Source: Waterburya sp. (lineage in GTDB: Bacteria > Cyanobacteriota > Cyanobacteriia > Cyanobacteriales > Xenococcaceae). From it: a stretch of DNA of 64,000 bases. Below, piece after piece: positions 40,176 through 58,219 of the stretch. A program made the translations under genes and the position numbers. Within the stretch, counting starts at the first letter, position 1. Each line of letters starts with the position of its first letter. The notes beneath the pieces are model-generated. The model was not told where the DNA came from and ran no database searches. It saw only the letters and a program-made list of their open reading frames with translations. The DNA is taken from positions 2,016,001 through 2,080,000 of the forward strand of contig CBDCJV010000002.1 of assembly GCA_965217895.1 (NCBI GenBank), read 5' to 3'.

Positions 40176-43100
40176 ATGCCTAATATAAATCGTCAATCTA
40201 AAACTAAAGCCACTCTTTCAGCGATCGCGGTTGTGGGGATGAGTTGTCAATATCCAGGGGCCAAAGACATTAGGCAACTTTGGTCGAATATCTTGGCAAA
40301 ACGACAGCAATTTCGACAAATTCCCGATGTACGCCTACCAATAGCTGAATATTACGATCGCGATCGCTCTGTCCCCGATAAGACTTATGGCGATCGCGCT
40401 GCGGTAATTGATGGTTTTGAGTTTGATTGGATTGGGCGACGCATTCCTCAGCAAACAGTACAGACTACAGATATCGTACATTGGCTGGCGTTGGAAACTG
40501 CCAATGAAGCTTTAAAAGATGCAGGCTTTAATCGCCAAAATGTGAATACAGCCAAAACGGGGGTAATTTTAGGCAACACCTTAACTGGAGAGCAAACTCG
40601 TGCCAGTACCTTACGTTTGCGCTGGCCTTACGTCAGACGAGCTTTAATCGCATCTGCCCAAGCTAGAAAAATGAGCGATCGAGTAATTGAAGCTTTGGTT
40701 GAAACAATGGAGCAGTTTTATAAATCTGTTTTTGCTCCCGTCAACGAAGATTCTTTGGCAGGAGGACTTTCTAACACTATTGCTGGTAGGATTTGCAACT
40801 TTTTCAATTTTGATGGTGGAGGATACACGGTTGATGGGGCTTGTGCTTCTTCCTTAATTGCTACAGCTACAGCTTGCAGCAAATTAGTTAGTGGCGATCT
40901 AGATTTGGCTTTGGCGGGAGGAGTAGACGTTAGTTTAGATACCTTTGAGCTAATTGGTTTTGCTAAAACTGGAGCTTTGACTGCGGGCGATATGGCAGTT
41001 TACGATCGCCGTGCTAGTGGTTTTATTCCAGGAGAAGGCTGTGGTTTTGTCGTTCTCAAACGATTAGCAGACGCAAGAGCAGCAGGAGATTATGTTTATG
41101 GCGTAATTCGAGGCTGGGGCATTTCTTCTGACGGTAAAGGCGGAATCACTGCACCTTCTGGGATAGGACAAAGCAAAGCTATACTCAGAGCCTATGAAAA
41201 AGCAGGTTATCATCCATCAGAATTAGATTTCATTGAAGGACATGGTACGGGAACTCCTGTAGGCGATCGCGTAGAATTAGAAGGGATTGCTTTAGCCATT
41301 TCTCAAGGAGAAGCCCAGATTAAACTCCGCTCGGTAGGCATTACTTCATTCAAATCTTTAGTCGGACATACCAAAGCAGCAGCAGGGGTTGGTGGTTTGA
41401 TTAAAGCTGTTATGGCAGTCAACCAGAGAATAATTCCTCCTACTGCTGGCTGTGCTGAAGCAAATCCTTTATTTGCCACTACTGCCCAATCTATTTATCC
41501 TGTTTTAACGGGAAAAGTTTGTCAGCCAAATACGACTCTTCGGGCTGGAGTTTCGGCAATGGGTTTTGGGGGAATTAATTCTCACCTTACTTTAGAGTCG
41601 GGCGATCATGCAGCCGAGCATTTGAAAACCGATTTGTTTCCTAAAGCTTTGCTAGTTTCGGCTCAAGACAGCGAAGTATTTATTTTAAGTGCCATTTCTG
41701 TTGAGAAATTATTAGAGCGCATTGAAAGACTAATCGATCTGGCAAGGGGAATTAGTCTGGCAGAGATGGTAGATTTAGCTGCCCTGCTAACAAGGCAAAT
41801 AGATTCCCAGCAACAGGTAAGAGCAGCAATAATTGTGACGACACCCAAGCAGTTAGCTGAAATTCTCCAGAAAATCAAACAGATTTTAGCAGATTCGCCA
41901 CCAGCGAAAGGAGAACTGACAACATCTCCCACTCAAGATTTTTGGCTGGCAAATACAGTTAACCATTCTAAAGTAGCCTTTATCTTTCCAGGACAAGGTT
42001 CGCAAAGATTGAACATGGCGAGTACTTTAGTGGAGCGTTATGACTGGGCGCAGCAGTTAGTTAGACAAGCAGACAAATGGTTAGAGGAAGTTAGTTGTCA
42101 GCCAGTTAGCCCTTTAATCTATTGTTGTTTAGAACAAGCAGCAGACGAAAGCGAAATAACTAATTGGTTTAGGGATCTATCTCGTGCTGAAATTGCTTCT
42201 CCTGCTATTTGCTTGGTTTCTTTATTGTGGCTGCGCTATCTCCAAGAACTAGGAATTGAACCCGTGGCAGTCGGTGGACATAGCTTAGGCGAATTGACGG
42301 CTTTTTATCAAATAGGAGCTTTTGACGCTAAGACTTTAATTCAGTTTGCAGCAATTAGAGGTCGAGCTTTAGCCAATTCTGGCAAAGAAACAGGAGCTAT
42401 GGCTAGTCTGGGTTGCGATCGCGCCTTTGCTGACCAAATCATTCAACAGGCATCGGGCTATGTGGTTATTGCTAATTTAAATAGTCCCAGCCAAACGGTT
42501 GTTTCAGGGGAATCTGAGAGTATTGACTCAGTTGTAAAAATAGCGGTTGCTCGAGGAATTCAAGTTAAAAAATTGCCTGTAGCTAATGCTTTTCATTCTG
42601 AGATAGTCAGAGAAGCAGCTAAATATATTACAAATAATGCTGCAGTTCCCGCCAAGCTAGTAGACACTGCGACTCCTTTATTTTCCAGTATCGATGGCAA
42701 ACAAATTCAACCAGAAGTTAAATTAAGCCACCATTTTGGCAAACAGATAGTTTCTGCGGTAGATTTTGTAGCTTTAACAACAAATATTTACCAGCATTGC
42801 GATTTAATACTAGAGGTTGGTTCTGGTCGAGTTTTAGCTAACCTAATTAATACAACTATCAACTCTAAACAGCCCGTTGGCTTTTGTACTGAAGGCAAAC
42901 CGACAACAAGTAAAAATCTTAACTGCTTTTTAGGCAGATTATTCGTTGCCAATCAAGAAATAAACTGGCAAGCACTATATAAAAATCGTTTAGTACATTC
43001 TTTTATTCCACCGTCGGAAAAATTATTTATTGATAATCCTTGCGAACGTCCTTTTAAAGTACCTGAAACTTATTTATCTCAATTAACACCAATTTTGACT

Positions 43101-46100
43101 GAGAATCAACCACCAAACAGTTTAAATAAACTAGAAAGCCTAGATAAAATTATGGCTGCTAATCAACACGACTTTAAAGAAATATTATCTCAGTATTTTA
43201 GCGATCGCAGTTCCTTTTTAGCTGAAATAATTAAAGCAGATCTGGCAACTCTACCAAAGCAATTATTAAATTTAGAAAGCAGAAGCGATCGGGATTTAGT
43301 ACCTATGCTATCTCGGTATTTCCAGATCAGAGGCTCGTTTCTAGGGCAAATCATTAATTCAGACCTAAAATCTTTAAACTATCTCGATGGGTTAAAAACG
43401 CGATCGCCCTACCAAGAATTAGAGTTGAGCAATGCTATAAAATCAAATCTCAATTATCTCAATGGCAATAGTAATAATCATCAACAAGCCGAGCAAAATT
43501 ATGTTAACAAAGCTGTTTCATTGAAGCCAGAAGTAAAGCATCAAGCCGAAGCAGCTAATAATTTGCGATCGCATATCGAACAATTTTTATTAAACTCAGT
43601 TGTCGAGAAAACAGGTTATCCCCTAGAAAGTATCGACCTAAGTTTAAAATTATTAGATGACTTAAATTTAGACTCGATTAAAGCAGGAGAACTAATTGCT
43701 ATAACTGCTAAGAAGTTTGGTGTAGCTGGGCAATTACAGCCCTCTAGTTTGGCTAACGGTACTCTCAAGCAGATAGCAGAAGAAATTGTCTTATCAATTT
43801 CTGGAGATTCAAAAGTAGTCAATGACAATCCTAAAGCTGAAGGCGCGGTACTAGCCAACAAAAATCAGAAAATCGTTCCAAATATTGTAGTTAGATCGTC
43901 AACTTCTACCTGGGTGCGTAATTTTGCGATCGCCTATGTCGAGCAAAAAATACCTCAACGGGATAAAGATTGGTTACAAGCCAAAGTTTTAGTTGTTACT
44001 GACAAGACTCATTTAATTGCTGATGTGGTAGCCGAACAGCTTGGTAATTTAGGTGCGCGAGTTGATCGCATTACTTATCAAGAAATAGATGATAATCTGA
44101 CTGTAACTGCTAACTATTCTGATTATTTTGCGTTGCTACCCCAGACGAGTAGCTCTTTACCATTAAAGACAATGGTAGAAAGGCTTAAAAGCATTGTTAC
44201 GGCTAGTAAAAACAGTCTTACTCCCAATATTGCTTATATTCAGTTTGGCGGTGGTTATTTCGGCGAGCGACCCCGCGCGCGGTCAACGCGCAAGGGAACC
44301 CGCGAGCTTGGACAGGGAAAACAAGCAATATCTCCAGAAGTATGTTGCGCTGCTGCTTTTGCTCGAAGCTGGCATTTAGAGCGTTCGGATTTGCGAGTGC
44401 GAGTTATCGATCTGGCTACAGAAATTGAACCCAATGATGCTGCTCAATTAGCGATCGCCGAACTAGCAGGAAATGAAGCGATTGTTACTGTAGGCTATGA
44501 TGCAAATAAGAGACGTTTAGTTCCCAGACCCCTATTACAGCAACCAGTTCACTACCAAAAGCGCGATCGCTCATGGTCGGAACAAGATGTGATTTTAGTT
44601 ACGGGAGGCGCGAAAGGAATCACCGCCGAGTGTGCTTTAGCTTTAGCGCAGTCAATTGATGTAAGAATGGCAATAGTGGGACGTTCTAACCAATCAAAGG
44701 TAGCTCAAACCTTAGAACGATTTCCTAAGCAAGATCGAATCCGCTACTATACCTGCGATATTACCGATGCTGATGCAGTCAAACGATTAATTACTACGAT
44801 TACTGCCGACTTAGGTACAGTTACTGGCGTAATTCATGGTGCGGGAGTCAATCAGCCTCAAAGAGTTGAAGAAGTCAGTGTTGAAGCTGCGGTTGAAGAA
44901 GTGTCGCCCAAGCTACTAGGAGCATATAACCTCTTGCAATCCTTGGCAGCAACTCCACCAAAGTTATTTATGGCGTTTAGCTCGATCATCGGCGTAACGG
45001 GAATGCCTGGTAATGCTTGGTATGGATTTTCTAACGAATCTCTAGCCATCTTACTGCGCCAGTTTAACCGCCATCACCCAGAAACTCAAACTCTTTCTTT
45101 GGCTTACAGCGTTTGGGGTGAGGTAGGCATGGGAGCGCGTTTGGGTAGTCTCAAAAATCTAGAGCGCATGGGCATTGATGCTATTCCTACCCAAGAAGGA
45201 GTAAATCGCTTTGTTCAGCTTTTTCATTACGATCCAGGAGTACAGCAGATAATTATTGCTGCACGTTTGGGTGGTTTGGATACCTGGCTACCAGATTTTT
45301 CTCCACCAACCAAATTACGTTTTATCGAGTCAGTTTTGCACCTCGAACCCGAAGTAGAATTGACCGCTCGCACTCATCTTAGTTTAGAACGGGATTTATA
45401 CTTACAAGACCATCTCTGGCGCGGGTCTTATCTCTTTCCCACCGTATTCGGTTTAGAAGCAATGGCTCAAGCAACTGCCTACGTTCTGGGGGAAGAAAAA
45501 CCTGCGATCGCAGCAATTGAAGATATTTCTTTGAAACAGCCAATTGTCGTCGATCCAGATCGGGGAGTGGCTATAGAAATTTATGCTGAGGTGTTAGAAG
45601 TCGATCTTCAGGGAGAACGACGAGTCAAAGTCGCAATTCGCAGCGAACAGAGTAACTTTACTAGCGATTGCTTTACCGCCACATTAGTTATTAAAGAGGC
45701 AAAAGCACCAGTAAAACTAGATTTGAAACTAGATCGAGCCTTAGAATTAAATCCCCAAACCGATCTTTATGGCGACTTACTCTTTCAGGGTTCGCGTTTT
45801 CAAAGAATGGGTAAAATTTTTACTCTGACTTCTACAAATTGTGTTTTCCAGGCTGAAATGCGATCGCCAGACGAACTAATAGCAGATAGCTTTACTACTT
45901 ATGAAGATAGCTATCTAATTTTGGGCGATCCTTACTTGAGAGATGTATTACTCCAGTCAGTCCAGCTTACTATTCCCCGCGATATTTCCTTGCCCGTTAA
46001 GATCGGTAAGATTGAACTGTTTAATAATTCTTCAAGTCGCAATAATTCTAACAAAATCGTAACGGCTCATTTGCAACCGCGGTCAGGAAATGAATATTTA

Positions 46101-47951
46101 AGTGAAGTTTTGCTTACCGACGACTCAGGCCTTGTTTTAGAAAAATTGACTAGCTATCGTCTGCGGATTCTCGAAGAACATCCTGATAACCCAACTGCGG
46201 TCGAATTGGCTTTTCCTGAAACTCGCGATCGCCAGCTACTCGATCGGGCTTTAAAATCTGTTACAGATAAGTTCGATCTAAATTTACCTGCTATAGCTCT
46301 GGGAGTTACGCCCAATATACACAAAGTCAGCAAAGAACAACGCCGTCAAATAGAAAAACCGATTGTAGCTGATGCTCTAAATACTAAACTAGGTTTATCC
46401 TCCACAGCAGAAATTGAATTTGAGATTGAGTCTTTAGCTTCTGGGAAACCACAGCTGAAGGGGGCGGAAACCGCAGGATTAGAACTGTCTCTATCTCACT
46501 GCGATCGCTATTGTTTGGCTGTAATAGATAAAACGCCACAAGGATGCGACATTGAGCCAATTACTCTTCGTTTGACAGAAGATTGGCAAGCCCTTTTAGG
46601 AAACTCCCAAAGCGAGATTATTGCAGAATTAATTCAACAAGGAGACAGCCTAGACATGGCTGGTACTAGAATTTGGTCGGCAGGTGAAGCAATTAATAAA
46701 GCCTTCAACGACACTGATGCCCAATTTTCAATTAGCAATCGCGATGGCGATGCGGTGTTGTTAAAGTGTTTGACTCCTACAGGCAAATACTATGTCGTTA
46801 CATTTCCTATTAAATTAACTCGTCCTCTAGAAAGAATCATTGCGATCGCCGTTTCCTTACCTGGAACTGATTCAATCCCTGTAGTTTCTGCCCTCTCAAC
46901 TGATATTGCCGAAAATCGCAGCCATCGCTCCCGTTATACCAGAGACAATCCCCAAGGACAATTAGTTTACGAACAGCGTTTTCAAGCCAGCTTTAAAGAT
47001 AGTGGCAGTATTAGTCGTCACGTCTATTTCTCCCAGTATTTTCGCTGGATTGGTAAAATTCGCGAAATACCGATGGAAAGCATTGCCAACCAAATTTTAA
47101 GAGACTTCTTAACTGGAGAATGGGGCATGGTAACTAATACCGTTAGTCTGCGGGTATTGGGTGAAGCCACTGCTTATGATGTGATTCAAGCCCGCGCTTG
47201 GGTAGGTAATATTGTTGATTCTTCTTTTACTACTTATATTGAATTTTGCCAAGTGCTGCCTGACGAATCTTTAAGCAGACTGGCGATCGCTGAAGTTAAA
47301 GCTACCTGGGTACGTCTAGTTAGCTATGGTGTTCCTTCTCCTATGACTTTTCCAGACTATCTACAAGAATACCTCGACCGATTCGCGACCAAAAAACCAG
47401 CCACTCTCGATCTTAAACAACCCGATTCTTTACCCCTGCCACCATTACCTGCTAGTCTGAAGGAAATAAACTTAGGTCATTTACTACAACAGGCTTCTTC
47501 TCAGGAGCGTTATGGACAGCTAATCTACTCCGAAGTTTTTCAGACAACTCTAGAAGAATCAAATTTAGTCGGTAATGTTTATTACGGCAACTACTTTATC
47601 TGGCAAGGTCGGATTCTCGATCTGTTTCTCTACTCAATCGCTCCTGAATATTTACGGGTTTCAAACCCTCGCGGGGAAATGATTTGTCTGTACAGTCGTA
47701 TGGACTATCTAAAAGAAGCAATGCCTTTTGACAAAATTCGCGTCGATCTTTATGTCAGCTCGGTTTTTGAATCTGGAGCAAAATTTAACTTTGAATTCTT
47801 TCGAGAACAACCAGACGGAAAAAGAGAAAAACTTCACATTGGTCAGCAAGAGGTGGCATGGGTAAAACGGCTAGAAAATGGTACTCCTGTATCTACATCG
47901 TTGCCTCCGATATTGAGACAAAAGCTTTTAAAATCATTTAGCAAAAACTAA
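40176..47951 (+). CDS. Enediyne-type iterative type I PKS (KS-AT-ACP-KR-DH-PPTase) with two fused hot-dog thioesterase domains
   Basis: KS DGACASS/EGHGTGT/GHTKAAAG with PKSE-like LRLRWPYVRR and EDSLAGGLSNTIAGRICN; AT GHSLG; ACP LNLDSI; KR TGGAKGITAECA; DH DHLWRGSYLFP; PPTase SLSH/GCDIE/RIWSAGE; TE EESNLVGNVYYGNYFIWQGR. Confidence 0.92.
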   Translation: MPNINRQSKTKATLSAIAVVGMSCQYPGAKDIRQLWSNILAKRQQFRQIPDVRLPIAEYYDRDRSVPDKTYGDRAAVIDGFEFDWIGRRIPQQTVQTTDIVHWLALETANEALKDAGFNRQNVNTAKTGVILGNTLTGEQTRASTLRLRWPYVRRALIASAQARKMSDRVIEALVETMEQFYKSVFAPVNEDSLAGGLSNTIAGRICNFFNFDGGGYTVDGACASSLIATATACSKLVSGDLDLALAGGVDVSLDTFELIGFAKTGALTAGDMAVYDRRASGFIPGEGCGFVVLKRLADARAAGDYVYGVIRGWGISSDGKGGITAPSGIGQSKAILRAYEKAGYHPSELDFIEGHGTGTPVGDRVELEGIALAISQGEAQIKLRSVGITSFKSLVGHTKAAAGVGGLIKAVMAVNQRIIPPTAGCAEANPLFATTAQSIYPVLTGKVCQPNTTLRAGVSAMGFGGINSHLTLESGDHAAEHLKTDLFPKALLVSAQDSEVFILSAISVEKLLERIERLIDLARGISLAEMVDLAALLTRQIDSQQQVRAAIIVTTPKQLAEILQKIKQILADSPPAKGELTTSPTQDFWLANTVNHSKVAFIFPGQGSQRLNMASTLVERYDWAQQLVRQADKWLEEVSCQPVSPLIYCCLEQAADESEITNWFRDLSRAEIASPAICLVSLLWLRYLQELGIEPVAVGGHSLGELTAFYQIGAFDAKTLIQFAAIRGRALANSGKETGAMASLGCDRAFADQIIQQASGYVVIANLNSPSQTVVSGESESIDSVVKIAVARGIQVKKLPVANAFHSEIVREAAKYITNNAAVPAKLVDTATPLFSSIDGKQIQPEVKLSHHFGKQIVSAVDFVALTTNIYQHCDLILEVGSGRVLANLINTTINSKQPVGFCTEGKPTTSKNLNCFLGRLFVANQEINWQALYKNRLVHSFIPPSEKLFIDNPCERPFKVPETYLSQLTPILTENQPPNSLNKLESLDKIMAANQHDFKEILSQYFSDRSSFLAEIIKADLATLPKQLLNLESRSDRDLVPMLSRYFQIRGSFLGQIINSDLKSLNYLDGLKTRSPYQELELSNAIKSNLNYLNGNSNNHQQAEQNYVNKAVSLKPEVKHQAEAANNLRSHIEQFLLNSVVEKTGYPLESIDLSLKLLDDLNLDSIKAGELIAITAKKFGVAGQLQPSSLANGTLKQIAEEIVLSISGDSKVVNDNPKAEGAVLANKNQKIVPNIVVRSSTSTWVRNFAIAYVEQKIPQRDKDWLQAKVLVVTDKTHLIADVVAEQLGNLGARVDRITYQEIDDNLTVTANYSDYFALLPQTSSSLPLKTMVERLKSIVTASKNSLTPNIAYIQFGGGYFGERPRARSTRKGTRELGQGKQAISPEVCCAAAFARSWHLERSDLRVRVIDLATEIEPNDAAQLAIAELAGNEAIVTVGYDANKRRLVPRPLLQQPVHYQKRDRSWSEQDVILVTGGAKGITAECALALAQSIDVRMAIVGRSNQSKVAQTLERFPKQDRIRYYTCDITDADAVKRLITTITADLGTVTGVIHGAGVNQPQRVEEVSVEAAVEEVSPKLLGAYNLLQSLAATPPKLFMAFSSIIGVTGMPGNAWYGFSNESLAILLRQFNRHHPETQTLSLAYSVWGEVGMGARLGSLKNLERMGIDAIPTQEGVNRFVQLFHYDPGVQQIIIAARLGGLDTWLPDFSPPTKLRFIESVLHLEPEVELTARTHLSLERDLYLQDHLWRGSYLFPTVFGLEAMAQATAYVLGEEKPAIAAIEDISLKQPIVVDPDRGVAIEIYAEVLEVDLQGERRVKVAIRSEQSNFTSDCFTATLVIKEAKAPVKLDLKLDRALELNPQTDLYGDLLFQGSRFQRMGKIFTLTSTNCVFQAEMRSPDELIADSFTTYEDSYLILGDPYLRDVLLQSVQLTIPRDISLPVKIGKIELFNNSSSRNNSNKIVTAHLQPRSGNEYLSEVLLTDDSGLVLEKLTSYRLRILEEHPDNPTAVELAFPETRDRQLLDRALKSVTDKFDLNLPAIALGVTPNIHKVSKEQRRQIEKPIVADALNTKLGLSSTAEIEFEIESLASGKPQLKGAETAGLELSLSHCDRYCLAVIDKTPQGCDIEPITLRLTEDWQALLGNSQSEIIAELIQQGDSLDMAGTRIWSAGEAINKAFNDTDAQFSISNRDGDAVLLKCLTPTGKYYVVTFPIKLTRPLERIIAIAVSLPGTDSIPVVSALSTDIAENRSHRSRYTRDNPQGQLVYEQRFQASFKDSGSISRHVYFSQYFRWIGKIREIPMESIANQILRDFLTGEWGMVTNTVSLRVLGEATAYDVIQARAWVGNIVDSSFTTYIEFCQVLPDESLSRLAIAEVKATWVRLVSYGVPSPMTFPDYLQEYLDRFATKKPATLDLKQPDSLPLPPLPASLKEINLGHLLQQASSQERYGQLIYSEVFQTTLEESNLVGNVYYGNYFIWQGRILDLFLYSIAPEYLRVSNPRGEMICLYSRMDYLKEAMPFDKIRVDLYVSSVFESGAKFNFEFFREQPDGKREKLHIGQQEVAWVKRLENGTPVSTSLPPILRQKLLKSFSKN

Positions 47952-48011: not shown

Positions 48012-48989
48012 ATGGACAATATGGAATTTATTATTAATGCAGTCAGTGGTACTGATGCCAATGACTTTCTCTTGGGCAGTCCTAACAATGATGCGATCGA
48101 GGGAAACGGTGGTAATGATTTGCTACTTGCTAATCTTGGAGATGACGCTTTAGTAGGTGGCAACGGTAACGATGCCATGTTTGGTGGTCCTGGGGTTGAT
48201 GTTTTAGATGGAGGCCCTGACGAGGATACGATCTTTGGTCAAGACGGTCTTGACGCGCTCAACGGTGGTGATGGCAACGATGCCATATTTGGTGGTGCAG
48301 ACCAAGATGCGCTCAACGGTGGCAATGGCGACGACGCTTTGTTTGGTGAGGGCGGTCTTAACTCGATTGACGGTGGTGATGGTCGCGATGCCCTATTTGG
48401 TGGTGAAGATAACGATATTTTAAATGGCGGTGCTGGGGATGATGGTTTATTAGGTAACGGCGGTAATGATGTCTTATTTGGCGAACTGGGCAACGATGTG
48501 ATGTCTGGCGGTGACGGCGACGATCGCATGAATGGCGATAAAAACAACGATGCTATGTTTGGTGGCAACGGTGACGATATCTTAATTGGTGGCGATGATA
48601 ACGACGTGCTTTCTGGAGATGACGGTAGCGATCTTTTAATTGGTGGCGCGGGAATAGACCAAATTACAGGCGGTGCTGGTGCCGATTTCTTTGGTTTGAC
48701 TACCGAAACAGGAGCCAACATTATTACCGATTTTGTAGTTGAAGATGATACTCTCTTTGTCTCCGCTGCGGATTTTGGTGGAGGCTTAACCCCAGGTGCG
48801 CTGATTCAACCAGAGAGTTTTGTCCTGGGAACGTCAGCTACTACGGAGAGCGATCGCTTTATTTACAATGATGCGGACGGTTCTCTATTCTTTGATGTAG
48901 ATGGAGTTGGCGCAAGCGAACAGATTCAAATAGCAAGCTTATCAACAGGACTTGAATTGACTAATAACGATATTTTCGTTTTTGCTTAA
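48012..48989 (+). CDS. RTX/hemolysin-type calcium-binding protein
   Basis: About 20 GGxGxDxLx nonapeptides; C-terminal DRFIYN..GSLFFD.DG domain; no signal peptide. Confidence 0.9.
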   Translation: MDNMEFIINAVSGTDANDFLLGSPNNDAIEGNGGNDLLLANLGDDALVGGNGNDAMFGGPGVDVLDGGPDEDTIFGQDGLDALNGGDGNDAIFGGADQDALNGGNGDDALFGEGGLNSIDGGDGRDALFGGEDNDILNGGAGDDGLLGNGGNDVLFGELGNDVMSGGDGDDRMNGDKNNDAMFGGNGDDILIGGDDNDVLSGDDGSDLLIGGAGIDQITGGAGADFFGLTTETGANIITDFVVEDDTLFVSAADFGGGLTPGALIQPESFVLGTSATTESDRFIYNDADGSLFFDVDGVGASEQIQIASLSTGLELTNNDIFVFA

Positions 48990-49039: not shown

Positions 49040-49417
49040 ATGAAAATTCTCAGCCCTAAAATTCATGGATATCTAGACTATTTAGTAGTTGTCTGGTTTT
49101 TAGCTGCACCGACGTTATTCGGCTTGACTGACGTTGCTGCTAATATTTCTTATGCTCTGGCGATTATTCATCTAGGGTTAACTGTTTTGACGGCTTTTCC
49201 CTTGGGTGTAATTAAAGTAATTCCCTTGCAGTTTCACGGCGCGATCGAATTTATTGTCTCTTTTGCTTTGATTGCTTTGCCCTGGGTACTAGGATTTGCT
49301 TCAGTGGCATCGGCGCGTAATTTTTATATCGCTTCAGGAATTGCCATCTTTATAGTTTGGCTGATTACTCGCTATCAAAGTGCAGGAGTTAAAACAAAAA
49401 CAATCAATCAACCATAA
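49040..49417 (+). CDS. Small 4-TM membrane protein (SPW-repeat-like)
   Basis: Repeated HG.(L/I)(D/E)(Y/F) motif and LPWVLGF; AGGAG RBS. Confidence 0.7.
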   Translation: MKILSPKIHGYLDYLVVVWFLAAPTLFGLTDVAANISYALAIIHLGLTVLTAFPLGVIKVIPLQFHGAIEFIVSFALIALPWVLGFASVASARNFYIASGIAIFIVWLITRYQSAGVKTKTINQP

Positions 49418-49542: not shown

Positions 49543-51300
49543 ATGCTTACTGCTAAATTATTAGAATACGACGTAGTAATTATGGGTGCGGGTTTTGCTG
49601 GACTCTGCCAAGCTCGGCACTTAATGCTTAATGTTCCAGGAGTAAAAGTTGCTTTAGTCGATCCGCGACCCGAAAAGCGATCTCATAAAGATCTGAAAAT
49701 TGGTGAATCGACGATCGAAATTGCGGCTCTTTTTCTGTCCAAAGAATTAGGTCTGCACGAATACTTAATTGAAAACCACGCACCCAAAAAAGGCTTGAAT
49801 TTTCACTGGGCAAAAAACGGAGGCGCGGGTAAAACCAACGCTATAGAAGACTACTACCACGTTTGGTCAAACCGACAAGTACCAATTCCTTCTTTTCAAA
49901 TTAATCGAGCGAGGTTTGAAGAGGACTTGCTGGCTATGAATCAAGAAATGGGGGCTGTATTCTATCACGGGCGAGTAGTTGATGCCGATCTTACTCCCAA
50001 AGATGTAGTTAAAATCGTCACGATCAAAACTGGTGGAGAAAACTTGGAACTAAAAGCCAAGCACGTTATTGATGCTGCTGGTCGCAAGTTTATCATTGGG
50101 CGCAAAACAGACAATCTAATTTTTGAACCAGAAAATCTGATGGGATTGAATACTGGTTCTGCCTGGATGCGGATTAAAAACGCCGACCGCACTATTTTCC
50201 ACGACGGATATGACCCAACGGGAGCATCAACCAGTCATTACTACTCTACTAATCATTTTTTTGGGCGCGGTCATTGGCTGTGGATGATTCCTACCGATAC
50301 TGAATCTGGAGAATTATCTATTGGCATGATTCACCATCATCAAGAGTTACCAGCTAGCCAAGTTAATACCCAAGAAAAATTCCGTACTTTTCTGCAAAAT
50401 AACCATGCCATCTTAGATCGGTTGATTGAAAGTGGCGAACCAGTAGATTTTCAGTATCGATCGCGTTTGGCACACACTAGTAAAACCATGTTCTCAGAAG
50501 ACAACTGGTACGTACTCGGCGATGCTGCCTATATCTTCGATGCCTTTTATTCCTTTGGCACAACAACCGTTGCTTTAGCTATTGAAGCAATCACCGAAAT
50601 CGTGCGGGCTAAACTTGCTCAAGAACCAGATGCCGAAGCCAAACGTGCTGCATACAATGAGTTTAACTTGGCTTATGCCCGTAGCGTTAACTGTCTCTAT
50701 CGGGGTCACGATAAACAGCTAGGTCATGCCAGCGTCATGAGCTGGCGCATTTACTTTGAGTATATGTGGTGGTTTGGGGTTCAAGTCCCGATGTACGTTG
50801 GTAAATGGCATTTGGATCTCACCTTCATCTCGATATATGTCAAAACTTTAAATAGTAATGTAGATGGGCTGTTTGCCGATGTATGCCAACAGTTCGAGCA
50901 GTTGGTAGAACAAGATGTCAACCTTGGTTTAATGGACTGTTACCGCGCCGATGGATTGCTGGGTAACTATCACACCCTCAAGCACTTTGATCGCTTCTTA
51001 GAAAATACTAAACTCGAACCCAGACACTGCAACGTTTTTGCAGGTCTAAAATCTACTTGTTTTTATGCTGCTATTTGGTATGCCAAGTTTCAGTGGAAGG
51101 GTTTTGGCGTGCGGGGATTGTTAAGACCCCTCAGTCTTTATCATTTTGGTAGGTTATTAGCACTATCGGCTCAAGGAGCAATAGGCGAACTGGTCTACAA
51201 ATCTAAAACTAGAAATTTACCTGCTAACAGTCAAGTCGAACAAATGCAGCGAGAGTTTGAGTCTTACCAATACCAAACCGAACTACAGCCTTGGATTTAA
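49543..51300 (+). CDS. Flavin-dependent halogenase-like protein 1
   Basis: GAGFAG, KIGES, PKKG (candidate catalytic Lys), WLWMIP and GDAA motifs. Confidence 0.78.
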   Translation: MLTAKLLEYDVVIMGAGFAGLCQARHLMLNVPGVKVALVDPRPEKRSHKDLKIGESTIEIAALFLSKELGLHEYLIENHAPKKGLNFHWAKNGGAGKTNAIEDYYHVWSNRQVPIPSFQINRARFEEDLLAMNQEMGAVFYHGRVVDADLTPKDVVKIVTIKTGGENLELKAKHVIDAAGRKFIIGRKTDNLIFEPENLMGLNTGSAWMRIKNADRTIFHDGYDPTGASTSHYYSTNHFFGRGHWLWMIPTDTESGELSIGMIHHHQELPASQVNTQEKFRTFLQNNHAILDRLIESGEPVDFQYRSRLAHTSKTMFSEDNWYVLGDAAYIFDAFYSFGTTTVALAIEAITEIVRAKLAQEPDAEAKRAAYNEFNLAYARSVNCLYRGHDKQLGHASVMSWRIYFEYMWWFGVQVPMYVGKWHLDLTFISIYVKTLNSNVDGLFADVCQQFEQLVEQDVNLGLMDCYRADGLLGNYHTLKHFDRFLENTKLEPRHCNVFAGLKSTCFYAAIWYAKFQWKGFGVRGLLRPLSLYHFGRLLALSAQGAIGELVYKSKTRNLPANSQVEQMQREFESYQYQTELQPWI

Positions 51301-51393: not shown

Positions 51394-53190
51394 ATGAATT
51401 CTCTTACCACTCAGACATTAGAATACGACGTTGCCATTATGGGGGCGGGATTTGCTGGTGTTTGCCAAGCCCGACATCTGCTGCTAAATATTCCTAATAT
51501 TCGAGTGGCGATAATTGACCCTCGCCCCATGCTGCGATCGCAGAAAGATTTAAAACTCGGTGAATCGTTAATTGAAGTCGCTGCTCTTTTTCTAGCTAAA
51601 GAATTAGGACTTAATGATTATCTAATCGAAAACCACACGCCCAAATCTGGGTTAAACTTTCACTGGCCCAAACAAAGCGATCGCACCGAAACTCTCGATG
51701 ACTACTATCACGTTTGGGCAAATCGACAGACCCCCATTGCTTCATACCACTTACACCGAGCTAAATTCGAGCAGGATCTGCTCAAAATGAACGCAGACAT
51801 GGGAGCAATTTTTTATCACGGTCGCGTTACCGATGTAGATCTAACCGAGGGAGACGCGCTTAAAAATATTGAAGTTAAACAAGGCAAAGAAACTTTAAAC
51901 ATCAAAGCCAAGCACGTTATCGATGCTGCTGGTCGTCGATTTCTCATCGGACAGAAAACCGATAATCTATTGTTTGGTGCCGAAAATCTCCTTGGAGTTA
52001 ATAACGGTTCTGCTTGGCTGCGAGTTAAAAACGTTGATCGCCAGATCTTTGATGAGGGATACGATCCTACGGGAACAACGAGCAGCCGTTACTATGCTAC
52101 CAATCACTATTTTGGTTCGGGACATTGGCTGTGGATGATTCCTATCGATAAACATTCCAACGAGCTATCAATTGGGGTGGTTCACCATCACAATGTTATT
52201 GCAGCTAAAGAAATTAATACCCAAGAGAAATTTTTTGGGTTTCTCGAAGCAAATCACAAGCTTTTGGCACGTCTGATTGATAGTGGTGAAATTGTTGATT
52301 TTCACTATTGGTCGAAGCTAGCTTATAAAAGTAAAACTCTGTTTTCCCCAGATAATTGGTATGTCCTGGGGGATGCAGCGCAAATCTTTGATGGTTTCTA
52401 TTCCTATGGAACGACGATGATTGCTTTTGCGGTAGAAAGCACCACAGAAATTATTCGCGCCAAGCTAGCGGGAGAGGCTGATGCTGAAATCAAGCGATCG
52501 GCATACAATGACTTTAATCTTGCTTACGGTCGCAGCGTTAACTGTCTCTATCGAGGTCATGATAAACAATTAGGTCATGCCAGCGTTATGAGTTGGCGTA
52601 TTTACTTTGAGTATATGTGGTGGTTTGGGGTACATATACCAATGTATATCGGTAAATGGCATCTCAACCTGAAGTTTGTTGACAAATACGTAGACATTGC
52701 TAATGCCAACGTCGATGGGCTTTTTGCCGATCTTTCTCAGCAATTTGATCGCTTAGTAGAACAAAGAGCGAATATCGGCTTGATGGATCCTTACCGAGCC
52801 GATCGCCTGTTTGGATATAGCACATTACAGCACTTTGATGACTTTTTAGAAAATACTAAATTCGAGCCAATGCGGTGTAATGTTTTCGCCAGCATGAAAA
52901 ATGCTTATTTTTACATCGCGCTGTGGTATGTACTGTTTCAGTGGAAAGGGTTTGGTATTGCTGGGTTAATCAATCCCCGTCATCTATATCACTTCGGTCG
53001 TTTGTTAGCACTATCGGTTAAAGCAGTTATCGGTGAAATAATTTATAAATTCAAAACCAGAGGTTTGCCCGACAATAGCCAAGTCGAACAGATTCGTCAA
53101 GAGTTTGAGAGTTACCGATACCGACCACAGCAGTTGATGCCAACAAAAGCGGTGCAACAGGAGCAGGAGGAGTTTGCCAAACAGCGATAA
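51394..53190 (+). CDS. Flavin-dependent halogenase-like protein 2 (paralog of 1)
   Basis: GAGFAG, KLGES, PKSG, WLWMIP and GDAA motifs; colinear with the preceding gene. Confidence 0.78.
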   Translation: MNSLTTQTLEYDVAIMGAGFAGVCQARHLLLNIPNIRVAIIDPRPMLRSQKDLKLGESLIEVAALFLAKELGLNDYLIENHTPKSGLNFHWPKQSDRTETLDDYYHVWANRQTPIASYHLHRAKFEQDLLKMNADMGAIFYHGRVTDVDLTEGDALKNIEVKQGKETLNIKAKHVIDAAGRRFLIGQKTDNLLFGAENLLGVNNGSAWLRVKNVDRQIFDEGYDPTGTTSSRYYATNHYFGSGHWLWMIPIDKHSNELSIGVVHHHNVIAAKEINTQEKFFGFLEANHKLLARLIDSGEIVDFHYWSKLAYKSKTLFSPDNWYVLGDAAQIFDGFYSYGTTMIAFAVESTTEIIRAKLAGEADAEIKRSAYNDFNLAYGRSVNCLYRGHDKQLGHASVMSWRIYFEYMWWFGVHIPMYIGKWHLNLKFVDKYVDIANANVDGLFADLSQQFDRLVEQRANIGLMDPYRADRLFGYSTLQHFDDFLENTKFEPMRCNVFASMKNAYFYIALWYVLFQWKGFGIAGLINPRHLYHFGRLLALSVKAVIGEIIYKFKTRGLPDNSQVEQIRQEFESYRYRPQQLMPTKAVQQEQEEFAKQR

Positions 53191-53236: not shown

Positions 53237-54253
53237 ATGTTATTGGAATTAGCTAAATATATACTCGCAGGTGCGATCGCCTTGCTTTTATTCTTGATAG
53301 TGATAGGAAGGGTCTACCAAGCCACTGCTACTGCAAGAGATTGCTCCAAATATCCGCCTCCAGGTAAGCTAATATATATCGGCGGGTATAAACTTCACCT
53401 TGATTGTCAGGGAGAAGGCGAGATTACCGTAGTTATGGATTATGGTTTGGGGGGCTTATCTTCCCTTTGGAGTCTGGTACAGTCAAAAGTAGCAAAATTT
53501 ACTCAGGTCTGTACCTATGACCGTGCTGGTTATGGTTGGAGCGATCGCAGTCCTTATCCTCGTACGAGTCAGCAGCTAGTTCGAGAACTGCATTTATTGT
53601 TAACTAAAGCCGAAATTAAACCTCCCTACATCTTGGTGGGTCATTCTTTAGGAGGCTTGAATATGCGTTTATTCGCCAGTCAATATCCCGATGAAGTTAG
53701 AGCAATAGTATTGGTAGATGCCGTACCCGCTAATATTTATTCTCGCTTAAATCCTCAGTTTCAGAAATATATGGCCAAAACCAACCAGATGTTTTTTTGG
53801 TTGTCTATTCTGTCGCGATTTGGTTTGTTGCGCTTGGGAACTCAACTGCTAGGGAATAAAGTCGCTCCAGATTTTGTCCGTAAGCTACCTGCTGAAATTC
53901 AACCAATAGTTCTGGCTCAGTTTTGCCCTAAGACTTTTAATACAGCGATCGCCGAAAGTCTGTTAATGGAAGATAGTGCCAAGCAAGTTAGCCAGACAAA
54001 ATTACCAGAAGATTTGCCCTTAATATTGCTATCTCACGGAATCAATATGTTTTCTAACCTTTCAGTTTCAGAAGCAGAAAAAGCTGGGTCGGTTTGGCAG
54101 AAACTGCAAGCAGAAACGGCATTGACTTCAAAAGGTATGTTAAACCAGGCTCAAACAAGCGGTCATGATATTCATATCGATTGCCCTCAGCTAGTAATAG
54201 ATGGGATTCGTCAAGCGATTTTATTGTCCGAAGGGCGATCGCGCGATCAATAA
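53237..54253 (+). CDS. Membrane-anchored alpha/beta hydrolase
   Basis: N-terminal TM, YDRAGYGWS, GHSLG nucleophile elbow and SGHDIH. Confidence 0.9.
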   Translation: MLLELAKYILAGAIALLLFLIVIGRVYQATATARDCSKYPPPGKLIYIGGYKLHLDCQGEGEITVVMDYGLGGLSSLWSLVQSKVAKFTQVCTYDRAGYGWSDRSPYPRTSQQLVRELHLLLTKAEIKPPYILVGHSLGGLNMRLFASQYPDEVRAIVLVDAVPANIYSRLNPQFQKYMAKTNQMFFWLSILSRFGLLRLGTQLLGNKVAPDFVRKLPAEIQPIVLAQFCPKTFNTAIAESLLMEDSAKQVSQTKLPEDLPLILLSHGINMFSNLSVSEAEKAGSVWQKLQAETALTSKGMLNQAQTSGHDIHIDCPQLVIDGIRQAILLSEGRSRDQ

Positions 54254-54326: not shown

Positions 54327-56339
54327 ATGATTCGCATTCTGCTAGTAGACGATTGCAACATGATACGGCAAGGACTTCAAGCATTGCTCGAACTCAGAGC
54401 GAAACTAAAAGTAGTGGGTACTGCCGAAGATGGTCACAGCGTAATAGAACAGGTAAAGAATCTCCAACCTGATATTGTGTTGATGGATATCGAGATGCCA
54501 GGAATGAGTGGCATAACTGCCACCGAAAAAATTTGTCAGCAATTTCCCCAGACAAAAGTTATCGTTCTCAGCAGCCACGAAGAGCAAGAATATGTTATTC
54601 AAGCTTTAAAAGCGGGAGCAGAAGGCTATTTACTAAAAAATGCTCATGCTGATGATCTAGAACAGGCAATTTTCGCAGTATATCGAGGTCAGTGCCAGAT
54701 AGAGTCAAAATTATTTAAAGAAGTATTCGCCAAATCTTCTATTTTGCGATCTCTTGAATCATCAGAACTAAACACATCTACTTCGATAGGCGAGCGATCG
54801 CCTGAGTTAGAAAGGGATCTCAACCAGGCGTTTAATTATACGGAGAACAGTAAAAATGGCTCATCGTCAAAGATTAGCAAGACGATTCCAAAACTAGTAA
54901 ATGAACGATCGTCATCTGAGATTGACGAAGTAAACGCTAGCTCTGCTTCAAAACGAGATACTGTTTATCAGCCATTAGCTTGGGGTTTAGAAACATCGGC
55001 GTTAAACTCTGACTCGATTGAGGAAAAACCAAAATTGCAGCCTAAAAAAACCATATTTTTCCAGTATTTGTGGTGGTGGATTATCGGCTTAGGGGTCTTT
55101 TCCATCTTATTGATTGCTATAATTACTTTTGTTTATTTACGAGCTAGCAAAAATTCTCCTCAACCAGTTGTAGAAACTCGCGTCGTACCCCAAGCAGTTT
55201 CAGCAATTGGTTATTTAGAACCACAAGGAGAAGCAATTAAACTATCTGCACCTGCTTTTTTGGAAGGGGCGCGTATCGAGCAGTTGCTGGTCAAACGAGG
55301 AGAAAAGGTTAAAACTGGGCAAGTAGTAGCAATTTTAGATAATCGCGATCGCTTACAGGCTGCTCTCCAACAAGCACAAGCAGAAGTAAAAACGGCTCAA
55401 GCTCGTCTGGCACAAGTCAAAGCAGGAGCCAAACAAGGAGAAATCCAATCGCAAAACGCTAAACTTCAAGAGACAAAAGCCGAATTAGCTGGGCAAATTG
55501 CTACCCAAACCGCCAACATTGCTAATTTAAAAGCTCAACTTGAAGGACAAACTAATTCTCAACGGGCAACTATTGCCAGATTAAAGGCTGAATTAAACAA
55601 CGCGACTAAAGAATGTCAGCGATACGAATTTCTCTTAGCCGATGGTGCGATCGCTGCTTCCAAACGCGATCGGATCTGCTTGCAGCAAGAAACTACTCAA
55701 AAACAACTCCAAGCTGCAAATGTAAATTTAATTGAAACTAAAGCGACCCTACAACAACAAATCGGTGAAGCCCAAGCTAATTTGAAACGTACTAAAGCAA
55801 CTTTAGCTAACCAAATTAATGAAGCCGAAGCTAGTTTTAAAGCCGTAGCCGAAGTCCGCCCTGTAGATGTAGCCGTCGCTCAATCCGAATTAGCAACTGC
55901 GATCGCTGCTGTTAAAAAGGGACAAGCAGACTTAGATTTAGCCTCTGTAAAATCGCCAATAAACGGTCAGATCTTAGAGATTAATACTTGGCCAGGAGAA
56001 TTTGTTGACAATGCCAAAGGTATAGTGGTGATGGGCGATACCCAGAATATGTACGTAGTCGCAGAAGTCTACGAAACCGATATAGATCGCGTTCACATCG
56101 GTCAAAGCGCAACCATTACTAGCGATGGAATTACTCAAAAACTAGCTGGAACTGTCGATGATGTTGGTTGGCAAATTGGCACTAAAGACGTTCTTGGTAC
56201 TGATCCTGTAGCAGATACAGACGCTAGAGTTGTCAAAGTCAAAATTCGCTTAAACGCCAAATCTAGCCAGCGAGTAAAGCATTTAACTAACCTAGAAGTT
56301 AACGCCATTATCAATACATCCAAACAGATTCAAAAATAG
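54327..56339 (+). CDS. Receiver domain fused to a DevB/HlyD-family membrane fusion protein
   Basis: IRILLVDD/LMDIEMP/YLLK receiver; TM; AIGYLEPQG, coiled coil, VAEVYETD and DARVVKVKIRL DevB motifs. Confidence 0.88.
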   Translation: MIRILLVDDCNMIRQGLQALLELRAKLKVVGTAEDGHSVIEQVKNLQPDIVLMDIEMPGMSGITATEKICQQFPQTKVIVLSSHEEQEYVIQALKAGAEGYLLKNAHADDLEQAIFAVYRGQCQIESKLFKEVFAKSSILRSLESSELNTSTSIGERSPELERDLNQAFNYTENSKNGSSSKISKTIPKLVNERSSSEIDEVNASSASKRDTVYQPLAWGLETSALNSDSIEEKPKLQPKKTIFFQYLWWWIIGLGVFSILLIAIITFVYLRASKNSPQPVVETRVVPQAVSAIGYLEPQGEAIKLSAPAFLEGARIEQLLVKRGEKVKTGQVVAILDNRDRLQAALQQAQAEVKTAQARLAQVKAGAKQGEIQSQNAKLQETKAELAGQIATQTANIANLKAQLEGQTNSQRATIARLKAELNNATKECQRYEFLLADGAIAASKRDRICLQQETTQKQLQAANVNLIETKATLQQQIGEAQANLKRTKATLANQINEAEASFKAVAEVRPVDVAVAQSELATAIAAVKKGQADLDLASVKSPINGQILEINTWPGEFVDNAKGIVVMGDTQNMYVVAEVYETDIDRVHIGQSATITSDGITQKLAGTVDDVGWQIGTKDVLGTDPVADTDARVVKVKIRLNAKSSQRVKHLTNLEVNAIINTSKQIQK

Positions 56340-56351
56340 GGGATTAAATTA

Positions 56352-57524
56352 ATGTTCGATCGCTTGTTTACTGCTTGGCTACAGCTAAAATATCAAAAAA
56401 TTCGGTTTTTAATTGCACTTTCGGGGGTAATTTTTGCCGTTGTCATTGTTTTTATGCAATTGGGTATTCGCGATGCCTTATTTAACAGTGCGGTTCGTTT
56501 TCACCAAGGTTTACAAGGAGACTGCTTTATTATTAGTCCTCGCTCGACATCTTTAATCGCCATGGAAAGTTTTTCTCAACGCCGTTTGGTGCAAGCCTTA
56601 GCTTTTGAAGAAGTAGAATTTGTTAATCCGATTTATCTTGATTTTGTCCAGTGGAAAAATCCCGAATCTAGAAAATACTGGCGTAATATTTTTGTAATAG
56701 GTTTCGATCTTCGACACCAAACTTTCGACTTACCTGGAGTTAAAGCAAGTCTCAATCAACTTCAACTTCCAGATACTATTTTATTTGATCGCACTTCGAG
56801 AACTGAATTTGGACCAGTAGCCGAACAATTTGAGGAAAAAGGTTCGGTGATTACCGAACTGGGAAGTAATAGCGGTTCTAATTGTCGAGTTAAAGTAGTA
56901 GGATTATTTGAGTTAGGAACTTCTTTTGGTTCTGATGGCAACATTATTACCAGCGACGTTAACTTTTTGCGGATCTCAAATACTCGTCAAAAAGGCTTTA
57001 TTGATGTTGGTTTAATTAAATTAAAATCGGCTGTCAATCCAGAACTTTTTAAAACTAAGCTGCAAAAATATTTAGCCCAAGATGTCAGAATTTTTACCAA
57101 ACAGGGATTTATTAACTTTGAAAAAAGCTATTGGCAAAGCAGCACTGCCATTGGCTTTATTTTTAATTTGGGTGTCGCTTTGGGCCTAATCGTCGGCATT
57201 GTCGTGGTTTATCAAATACTTTATACCAACATTTCCGACCACTTGCAGGAATACGCCACTTTAAAAGCGATCGGTTACAGTCGAAGATATATGTTAAATA
57301 TAGTTTTTCAACAAGCTTTAATTATCGGAATTTTGGGTTATATTCCAGGATTATTAATTACTATTATTCAATATGAGTTTACCAAACAGGCAACTTTGCT
57401 ACCAATTGAGATGACTTGGCAAAGAGCGGCGTATGTCTTGGTAGCAACCATAATTATGTGTTCGATCTCTGGGGTTTCGGCGATGAATAAGCTGAAGTCT
57501 GCCAACCCTGCCGATATCTTTTAA
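56352..57524 (+). CDS. devC: DevC-family ABC exporter permease
   Basis: AWLQL, FMQLG, YQILY..ISDHL.EYATLKAIG and PADIF motifs. Confidence 0.9.
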   Translation: MFDRLFTAWLQLKYQKIRFLIALSGVIFAVVIVFMQLGIRDALFNSAVRFHQGLQGDCFIISPRSTSLIAMESFSQRRLVQALAFEEVEFVNPIYLDFVQWKNPESRKYWRNIFVIGFDLRHQTFDLPGVKASLNQLQLPDTILFDRTSRTEFGPVAEQFEEKGSVITELGSNSGSNCRVKVVGLFELGTSFGSDGNIITSDVNFLRISNTRQKGFIDVGLIKLKSAVNPELFKTKLQKYLAQDVRIFTKQGFINFEKSYWQSSTAIGFIFNLGVALGLIVGIVVVYQILYTNISDHLQEYATLKAIGYSRRYMLNIVFQQALIIGILGYIPGLLITIIQYEFTKQATLLPIEMTWQRAAYVLVATIIMCSISGVSAMNKLKSANPADIF

Positions 57525-57535
57525 TCTTTTTAGCG

Positions 57536-58219
57536 ATGAACCCAATTGTGATCCGCAATTTAAATCATTATTTTGGCGAACAAGCTTTAGTCAAACAAAC
57601 CTTATTTGACATCAATATAGAAATCAAAGCGGGTGAGATTATAATCCTAACTGGTCCTTCAGGATCTGGTAAAACTACCTTGCTAACTTTAATCGGTGGA
57701 CTGCGATCGGTTCAATCTGGCAGCTTGCTAACTTTAAATCGAGAATTATGCGGGGCAAGTGAAGCCGACTTAGTCCAACTCAGACGCAAAATTGGCTATA
57801 TCTTTCAGGCACACAATTTATTACCCTTTATGACCGCACAACAAAACGTGCAGATGTCTTTAGAACTAGATAATAATTTAAGTAGTCGTCAAGCTGCTGT
57901 AAAAGCCATGGAAATGCTGGCAGCAGTAGGCTTAGAAGCAAGAGCTAAATACTATCCCCAAAAACTTTCAGGGGGACAAAAACAACGGGTGGCGATCGCC
58001 AGAGCTTTAGCCAGCAATCCTGAGTTAGTTTTAGCCGATGAACCAACTGCTGCTTTAGATAGTAAAACAGGTCGAGAAGTTGTCAATATAATGCGTCGCT
58101 TGGTCAAAGAAAAAAACTCGACGATCCTTTTAGTAACTCATGACAATCGTATTTTAGACACAGCCGATCAAGTTATCCATCTAGAGGATGGTCGCTCGAT
58201 CGGGATAAGTGGTAACTAA
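57536..58219 (+). CDS. devA: DevA-family ABC exporter ATPase
   Basis: LNHYFG, GPSGSGKTT, GYIFQAHNL and LSGGQKQRVAIARA motifs. Confidence 0.92.
   Translation: MNPIVIRNLNHYFGEQALVKQTLFDINIEIKAGEIIILTGPSGSGKTTLLTLIGGLRSVQSGSLLTLNRELCGASEADLVQLRRKIGYIFQAHNLLPFMTAQQNVQMSLELDNNLSSRQAAVKAMEMLAAVGLEARAKYYPQKLSGGQKQRVAIARALASNPELVLADEPTAALDSKTGREVVNIMRRLVKEKNSTILLVTHDNRILDTADQVIHLEDGRSIGISGN

Follow-up and report, generated by a model that had tools for sequence, protein, structure and literature searches.

Introduction

The thioesterases (TEs) of enediyne biosynthesis, SgcE10, CalE7, and DynE7 (PDB 4I4J, 2W3X, and 2XEM/2XFL; also 5VPJ/9CCR), share a hot-dog fold, a loop motif, a helix motif, and an enediyne-type polyketide synthase (PKSE) as partner; they are single-domain proteins of about 150 residues (aa), encoded apart from the synthase, with all motif residues in each subunit. 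Among these residues, we take the helix Arg (Arg37 in CalE7) to be the key catalytic one, and PDB 9CCR has Ala at this position, in keeping with that role. PKSE/TE pairs yield a C15 heptaene with terminal decarboxylation and require the TE (PMC9992847), CalE7 binds the acyl carrier protein (ACP) only transiently (PMC3107222), and the enediyne cassette consists of five genes, E3/E4/E5/E/E10 (PMC5181780). Here, we analyzed a window of 64,000 nucleotides (nt) from the cyanobacterium Waterburya sp. (contig CBDCJV010000002.1, positions 2,016,001 to 2,080,000 of the forward strand; coordinates below are those of the window), which encodes a PKSE-like iterative type I polyketide synthase (PKS) that ends in two fused, diverged E10-type domains, TE1 and TE2, with the motif residues divided between them. 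We consider it likely that this didomain is a tandem E10-type duplication with complementary losses, predicted to form a pseudo-dimer whose single composite site probably releases the chain from the synthase's own ACP.

SgcE and other PKSEs have the same domain order and catalytic motifs as this synthase; however, the latter carries about 360 extra C-terminal residues, is only 39% and 27% identical to SgcE over two successive parts, and is accompanied by halogenase-like genes and a DevBCA exporter instead of E3/E4/E5. ACOT7 and the acyl-ACP thioesterases (FatA/FatB, 5X04, 2ESS, 2OWN) hold a double hot-dog in one chain, as is predicted for the didomain (Z 21–23 against its model); according to PMC2698920, the ACOT7 site is formed by Asn24 together with Asp213, and a single site for each pair of domains is the general rule among double hot-dogs. 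Compared with these enzymes, the didomain is only 7–15% identical, has a putative Arg-centred site of the E10 type rather than one built on an acid residue, and is fused to a PKS. In addition, TE1 and TE2 are 29% identical to each other over 147 aa, whereas the halves of classic double hot-dogs are about 10% alike.

A further system of this kind is known from Microcystis. A PksE-like iterative PKS with three halogenases is described (Frangeul 2008, PMC2442094), a "PKSI iterative" cluster is listed as orphan (Humbert 2013, PMC3741299), and a Lake Erie preprint terms a Microcystis cluster enediyne-like (10.1101/2022.10.12.511943); the word thioesterase is absent from all three texts. The Microcystis cluster, too, combines a PksE-like iterative PKS with halogenases, and Microcystis proteins are 76% identical to ours over the didomain, with the same gene order, but their PKS is split into two genes, whereas here it is one. 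We infer that these Microcystis didomain loci are the cluster of Frangeul 2008 and Humbert 2013. Calteau 2014 (PMC4247773) draws cyanobacterial enediyne-clade clusters in a figure whose legend has no TE, and its four text supplements gave no match. In the literature searched, most subscription papers lying outside it, no listed paper has a fused or tandem E10 in its title or in the opening of its abstract; an earlier mention would be likeliest in Rudolf 2016 or its supplements. The ingredients, namely a PKSE with PPTase (phosphopantetheinyl transferase), an E10 thioesterase, and a one-site double hot-dog, all have precedent; their combination into a tandem TE-PKS, spread over at least 100 distinct sequences, was not found described. 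Given the one-site rule (PMC2698920), a PPTase that is ordinary in PKSEs, and the variability of both the TE2 Arg loss and the fusion, the novelty is less than an earlier note on this DNA, written from the sequence alone, had assigned to it.

TE1 and TE2 retain complementary parts of the E10 motifs

The earlier note had placed two E10-like domains behind the PPTase domain, and this was borne out: both motifs lie in the open reading frame (ORF) (TE1, residues 2273–2297, nt 46992–47066; TE2, residues 2459–2482, nt 47550–47621), each half matches E10 proteins in the PDB, and the PPTase was modelled. TE2 matched all six E10-type sequences in the PDB with E values of 4.8e-15 to 7.6e-10 and is 33% identical to SgcE10. 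TE1 was overlooked in the search that found TE2; searched alone, it matched the same six (E 8.1e-5 to 8e-3), and its sole other PDB match was noise (E 0.26). Each half combines a predicted hot-dog fold with sequence kinship to SgcE10, CalE7, and DynE7. No NCBIfam family was assigned to TE1 or TE2, the matches of the atlas search were 4HBT_2-type clusters only, and no match to the acyl-ACP thioesterase (Fat) Pfam profile was listed, the likeness to that family being a structural match at 7–15% identity.

Unlike the enediyne TEs, which are stand-alone proteins, the didomain forms the end of a 2591-aa ORF, and neither domain unites the loop motif with the helix R-E. TE1 keeps Gly2293, Arg2296 (codon 47061–47063), Glu2297, and Thr2320, and the Asn, Gly, and Asn of its loop are replaced by Ser2278, Arg2281, and His2282. 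TE2 keeps Asn2463 (codon 47562–47564), Gly2466, Asn2467, Tyr2469, Tyr2470, Tyr2473, and Phe2518, and has Leu2481, Asp2482, and Cys2504 in place of Arg, Glu, and Thr.

The asymmetry is conserved across homologues. A search with the last 342 residues as the query returned 78 long proteins, and the best 150 of 251 clusters at E 1e-30 or better were listed from a representative library. Of the 221 proteins used, 8 partial ones were dropped; the remaining 213 span both halves and comprise 126 non-redundant sequences at 60% identity. The TE1 Arg is present in all 213 full didomains, down to about 29% identity, and N-x-x-G-N occurs in none of the 213 TE1s, a pattern well beyond chance and in line with the claim that TE1 has lost the loop motif and kept R-E. 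The companion claim fared less evenly: the TE2 loop is retained (N-x-x-G-N in 205/213) and R-E is lost here, but about half of the family keeps the TE2 Arg (88/213; 67/126 non-redundant), nearly always as R-D and as R-E in only one of the 213.

Face by face, the counts for TE1 versus TE2 among the 126 non-redundant didomains are 38 versus 122 for the loop Asn, 16 versus 123 for the loop Gly, 6 versus 126 for the second loop Asn, 70 versus 124 for the Tyr27 equivalent, 87 versus 122 for the helix Tyr, and 5 versus 123 for the Phe76 equivalent in a later loop. On the opposite face, the order is reversed, with 122 versus 79 for the helix Gly, 126 versus 67 for the helix Arg, 123 versus 11 for the helix Glu, and 123 versus 9 for the strand Thr. 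Overall, 35 columns show at least 85% conservation. Compared with E10, an additional Asn is conserved behind the Thr of TE1 (118/126), and Trp replaces the E10 Cys in both halves. The full residue set is present in 11 of 11 actinomycete stand-alone E10s from plasmid records, close kin and therefore a weak control on their own; the loop motif and R-E are also both kept in three cyanobacterial and one rhizobial stand-alone E10s from E3/E4/E5-type cassettes. With TE2 as the query, a protein-database search gave 18 short proteins, apparently fragments from the didomain family.

In a FastTree phylogeny (141 columns, two long outgroup branches), one branch (support 99) sets all 126 TE1s apart and another (91) all 126 TE2s, which is consistent with the origin of TE1 and TE2 from one old duplication. 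The TE2 Arg is kept in 32 of the 38 sequences with a TE1 loop Asn versus 35 of the 88 without, the strongest positive association among 215 TE1 states; both residues would belong to one site (site B, below).

One subgroup (L023, L025, L026, the 10001–10960 region of L027, the end of ORF 8520–16202 in L050, and P0098) is altered on both sides of the putative site: TE1 R-E is changed to R-D, the TE2 loop Asn to Asp, and the Tyr after G-N-I to Asn. Class I 4HBT enzymes use an Asp in this place of the loop for catalysis, and the chemistry may therefore differ in these proteins.

The didomain is predicted to fold as a pseudo-dimer

As the earlier note had anticipated, the last residues model as a double hot-dog, and the halves dock in dimer geometry. 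The AlphaFold2 model (65-sequence alignment) has a mean predicted local distance difference test (pLDDT) of 94.0 and a predicted template modelling score (pTM) of 0.92, and shows the hot-dog pattern twice in one chain, with a continuous sheet and antiparallel helices. The structures that match it best by Foldseek and VIA, with alignments that span both domains at once, are double hot-dog thioesterases, including the acyl-ACP thioesterase 5x04 (Z 23.2, root-mean-square deviation (rmsd) 2.8, 246 residues aligned in one rigid alignment over residues 4–315) and mouse ACOT7 (6vfy, Z 21.3). TE2 alone matches DynE7 (2xem) with Z 12.2, rmsd 1.9, and 137 aligned residues.

When TE1 and TE2 were folded as separate chains without the linker, the pair scored 0.88, and the best of three controls 0.01. 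Of 157 solved complexes, 116 attain the docking mark applied, as do 2 of 215 mismatches; runs share at least 93% of contacts, partner pLDDT is at least 89, and the pass may stem from likeness to solved hot-dog dimers. In the predicted interface, the edge strands pair through Val2323–Met2509 and Leu2325–Tyr2506, the antiparallel helices cross at Phe2289–Phe2474, and the TE2 loop (2464–2465) and TE1 Thr2320 are included. Such a crossing would set Arg2296 opposite the start of the TE2 helix and the TE2 loop, and Leu2481 opposite the altered TE1 loop; the position of Arg2296 beside the TE2 loop is thus inferred from the modelled register.

This register agrees with the cis/trans assignment in the related Staphylococcus aureus DHNA-CoA thioesterase (PMC8918352), where one monomer supplies Asp16 and His23 in the loop and the other the helix residue Glu31, which is hydrogen-bonded to Tyr22; by spacing, Glu31 maps to Gly2293/Gly2478, one turn ahead of the Arg. 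Co-variation at z of about 5 links Tyr2284 to Gly2478 (the equivalent of the Tyr22–Glu31 pair), Ser2286 to Gly2478, and Glu2297 to Tyr2469, and the co-variation of strand pairs peaks at the register of the model (sum 4832); co-variation and the two-chain model share sequences, and near-invariant columns depend on few of them. Conservation, register, and co-variation thus agree with one site built from both domains, as far as sequences and predicted models go.

A proposed single composite site and its alternatives

In the mechanism that we favor, TE1 and TE2, which the sequence counts show to conserve opposite faces across the family, would join through their edge strands, the helices running antiparallel, as the two subunits of an E10 dimer do. 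Site A, of which no residue is missing here, would then combine Gly2293, Arg2296, Glu2297, and Thr2320 of TE1 with Asn2463, Gly2466, Asn2467, Tyr2469, Tyr2470, and Tyr2473 of the TE2 loop and helix start. Site B would consist of the TE1 loop and the TE2 helix; in this protein its Asn, Gly-Asn, Arg, Glu, and Thr are gone, and it is probably inactive or of structural use alone. By homology, the PPTase would arm the ACP, KS (ketosynthase), AT (acyltransferase), KR (ketoreductase), and DH (dehydratase) would iterate to an unsaturated chain, and site A would hydrolyse the thioester, possibly with decarboxylation as in PKSE/TE pairs; the halogenase-like enzymes and the DevBCA exporter may then tailor and export a non-enediyne product. 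Given the PKSE/TE precedent (PMC9992847), an unsaturated chain freed by site A is the likeliest outcome, and the transient binding of ACP by CalE7 (PMC3107222) makes a gain from fusing the TE plausible. The genome, which is 99.9% complete, gave no E10-type thioesterase besides the didomain. The proposal of a pseudo-dimer with one composite site is supported at the level of the fold, as modelled, and a probable convergence of the residues on one pocket is suggested by the register, the S. aureus precedent (PMC8918352), and co-variation; neither of the two refutation tests set in the earlier note, as far as they went, spoke against it.

Several observations weigh against this mechanism. R2296 and N2463 are absent from the interface contacts listed for the two-chain model, and the co-variation is noisy: of the 25 strongest inter-domain pairs, just 5 have both residues in the interface (a hand count; about 0.7 would be expected). 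When kinship is allowed for, the joint decay of the TE1 loop Asn and the TE2 Arg is not significant (5.3 pairs in the same direction against 0.2 in the other; median p values of 0.06 and 0.125), and since 67 of 126 sequences keep the TE2 Arg, many relatives may still possess a second site. The product could instead be released by the alpha/beta hydrolase of the cluster or by either of two further 4HBT-family proteins that the genome encodes. One genome (G041, locus L045) has cleanly lost TE1 and kept an Arg-less TE2, its PKS also being in pieces. As to self-priming, a pattern search detected both PPTase motifs, which are intact here, in no more than 97 of 148 PPTase regions, and 7 of the 155 proteins whose upstream sequence is long enough lack a PPTase match ahead of TE1.

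The alternative that survives best, which we regard as unlikely, retains the pseudo-dimer and its site and assigns them another chemistry, such as chain transfer, cyclisation, or holding of the chain during the action of the halogenase-like enzymes, with release by the alpha/beta hydrolase or another enzyme. The low mean identity to SgcE10 (about 20–26%), the Trp at the E10 Cys in both halves together with the new TE1 Asn, the dehydratase, cyclase, and decarboxylase activities of other hot-dog folds, and the presence of the halogenase-like family in 23 of 27 related loci would all suit such a role; against it, each counted site A residue equals the E10 residue, the nearest solved relatives by sequence are all polyene-releasing thioesterases, and the hydrolase occurs in only 8 of the 27 loci, within limited flanks.

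Still less probable is an inter-chain or quaternary-interface role of the conserved motifs. Hot-dog consensus motifs lie at active sites and quaternary interfaces alike (PMC2698920), and two co-variation pairs of the strongest class fall within TE2 (Glu2460 and Glu2461 with Arg2479) and could be inter-chain contacts. However, TE1–TE2 pairing is predicted with and without the linker, the TE1-only retention of the trans-face Gly, Glu, and Thr and the link between the TE2 Arg and the TE1 loop would go unexplained, and inter-chain pairing would yield the same composite site anyway. That the didomain is a decaying relic without a role, with release in trans, could draw on the TE1 deletion in one locus and the two other 4HBT-family genes, but with an Arg invariant in 213 of 213 sequences to about 29% identity and 35 strongly conserved columns, this idea is close to refuted and very improbable.

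The synthase is PKSE-like and encoded by a single gene

The coordinates of the synthase and its neighbors are given in Table 1. The ORF (40176–47951) has the KS-AT-ACP-KR-DH-PPTase order of a PKSE; Pfam recognized KS, AT, ACP, KR, DH, and one 4HBT_2 stretch. It aligns with SgcE (C-1027 plasmid) at 39% identity over residues 14–1018 and at 27% over 1018–2232, and the KS, AT, KR, DH, and PPTase motifs agree with those of SgcE, all catalytic motifs checked being intact. Since the alignment ends at residue 2232, the stretch behind it, about 360 residues, has been added to what is otherwise the usual PKSE architecture. The PPTase domain gave weak profile matches; its model (pLDDT 95.8) best matches solved PPTases of the mycobacterial PptT type (Z 16.2, rmsd 3.0, 181 aligned; and Z 15.6). 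An assembly artefact was considered as the cause of the fusion and is ruled out: the same single fused ORF is present in two independent genomes (96% and 91% identity; L001 and L002), and contigs from two runs of one sample, possibly the source sample, cover the gene with no indels or joints listed. Upstream of the ORF is psbA, the genome being cyanobacterial. No RNA record carrying the sequence was listed, which has no bearing on whether the gene is expressed.

Table 1. Features of the synthase gene and its downstream neighbors in the window
Feature	Position (nt)	Strand	Basis
PKSE-like iterative type I PKS ORF, 2591 aa, KS-AT-ACP-KR-DH-PPTase-TE1-TE2	40176–47951	+	Domain search and SgcE alignment
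KS domain; Cys223, His356, and His398 in place	40221–41450	+	Pfam and motif check against SgcE
AT domain; Ser703 in place	41979–42887	+	Pfam and motif check
ACP; Ser1167 the likely attachment site	43584–43784	+	Pfam PP-binding, E 1.5e-4
KR domain; NADPH motif and Tyr1616 in place	44592–45119	+	Pfam and motif check
DH domain; His1746 and downstream Asp motif in place	45351–46187	+	Pfam and motif check
PPTase domain; Asp2125, Glu2127, and Glu2171 aligned with identical SgcE residues	46230–46880	+	Profile, model, and alignment
TE1 hot-dog domain, residues ~2262–2404	46959–47387	+	Sequence search and alignment
Inter-domain linker, ~43 aa, mostly coil	47388–47516	+	Predicted model
TE2 hot-dog domain, residues ~2448–2586	47517–47933	+	Sequence search, model, and alignment
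RTX-type calcium-binding repeat protein; often in cluster	48012–48989	+	Pfam and locus comparison
SPW-repeat small protein; 4/27 loci	49040–49417	+	Pfam and locus comparison
Flavin-dependent halogenase-like protein 1; GxGxxG and WxWxIP present	49543–51300	+	Domain search
Flavin-dependent halogenase-like protein 2, 68% identical to protein 1	51394–53190	+	Domain search
Alpha/beta hydrolase; 8/27 related loci; possible second release or tailoring enzyme	53237–54253	+	Pfam
DevBCA-type ABC exporter (DevB fused to receiver domain, DevC, DevA)	54327–58219	+	Pfam/NCBIfam

Between AT and ACP are two similar short segments (residues ~1000–1070, nt 43130–43420), which lie where the synthase of most relatives is divided between two genes and are possibly docking segments left by gene fusion. 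Many of the split relatives have a second ACP-like match.

Distribution and gene-structure variants

Upstream of TE1, 37 of the 126 non-redundant didomains have at least 1900 residues, i.e., a full PKS, 32 have 300–1900, 25 have 80–300, and 32 have fewer than 80, the last group being stand-alone didomains or fragments. In L023, L025, L026, and L027, PPTase-TE1-TE2 is a separate gene of 516–536 aa, showing that fusion to the PKS is optional. The suggestion of a synthase self-priming and self-releasing in one chain would apply to this gene, in which the PPTase and TEs are fused; an internal PPTase is already ordinary in PKSEs, and the family as a whole need not share the fusion. Among 401 genomes of the phylum, 13 had matches, comprising 9 didomains (this one included) and 4 single domains, three of which are ordinary E10s adjoining E3, E4, E5, or PKSE genes and the fourth a TE2 after TE1 deletion. 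This last locus (L045; G041:C1:1524000–1543900) is 94–96% identical to L049; its PPTase is followed by a 138-aa gene for a TE2 that lacks the Arg, its PKS lies in several ORFs, and the locus is probably decaying. Outside the cyanobacteria, single records each came from a Thermoguttaceae bin (planctomycete), Methylobacter, Desulfobacteraceae, and the archaeon Ca. Methanoperedens; of ten records looked up, three, the last ones named here, had an organism name.

A wider reading, which we put forward only tentatively and hold to be less probable than its negation, is that of an undescribed, widespread PKSE-like branch in which the stand-alone E10 tetramer gave way to an asymmetric double hot-dog built into the synthase, so that one gene primes, elongates, and releases. 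The surrender of one site would have reshaped the substrate channel, and the chain released would be a polyene of a new class, subsequently halogenated and exported, in place of the enediyne heptaene. If the mechanism that we favor is right, one 7.8-kb gene would be a polyene synthase complete in itself and expressible on its own, and the product of the orphan Microcystis cluster type, noted in 2008, would become directly testable. As a natural heterodimer, the didomain would allow the E10 active-site faces to be dissected singly, unlike in a homo-oligomer, and its family would retain intermediates between two-site and one-site forms. PKSE-like matches that carry the didomain tail should not be annotated as enediyne clusters.

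The proteins with no PPTase match before TE1 are P0035, P0036, P0093, P0140, P0172, P0174, and P0181; in P0140, the DH runs directly into the didomain. About 500 extra residues follow TE2 in P0133 (Ca. Methanoperedens) and P0167.

Gene neighborhood

Besides the halogenase-like genes, the recurrent neighbors are often the RTX-repeat protein, the alpha/beta hydrolase, and the DevBCA exporter. An enediyne cassette was considered for this locus and rejected, as E3/E4/E5 are absent from it. In tblastn searches with the C-1027 proteins, E3 and E4 had no match in the genome, E5 had one weak match (25%, E 3e-6) about 480 kb away, and the positive control L043 was matched by E3, E4, and E5; by the five-gene definition (PMC5181780), the locus is no enediyne cassette.

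In loci L046, L047, and L048, from three cyanobacterial genomes, and in L043 (Sinorhizobium meliloti pSymA), a stand-alone E10 accompanies cassette genes of the enediyne type; E3/E4/E5/PKSE/E10 is complete in L046 and partial within the stretches covered for the other three. The PKSEs of these four loci are 35–47% identical to SgcE where seen and form a lineage separate from the didomain PKS. In L022 (9256–10269) and L026 (10976–11953), the didomain is immediately followed by an E3-like (DUF1702) gene with 32–33% identity to that of C-1027, with no E4 or E5 matches in the stretch covered.

The DevB-type membrane fusion protein of the exporter (54327–56339) carries an N-terminal response-regulator receiver domain, a fusion that also occurs in L001, L002, and L026 and is absent in most other loci. 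Just past the exporter genes is a 233-aa reverse transcriptase ORF (RVT_1; 59777–60478, minus strand).

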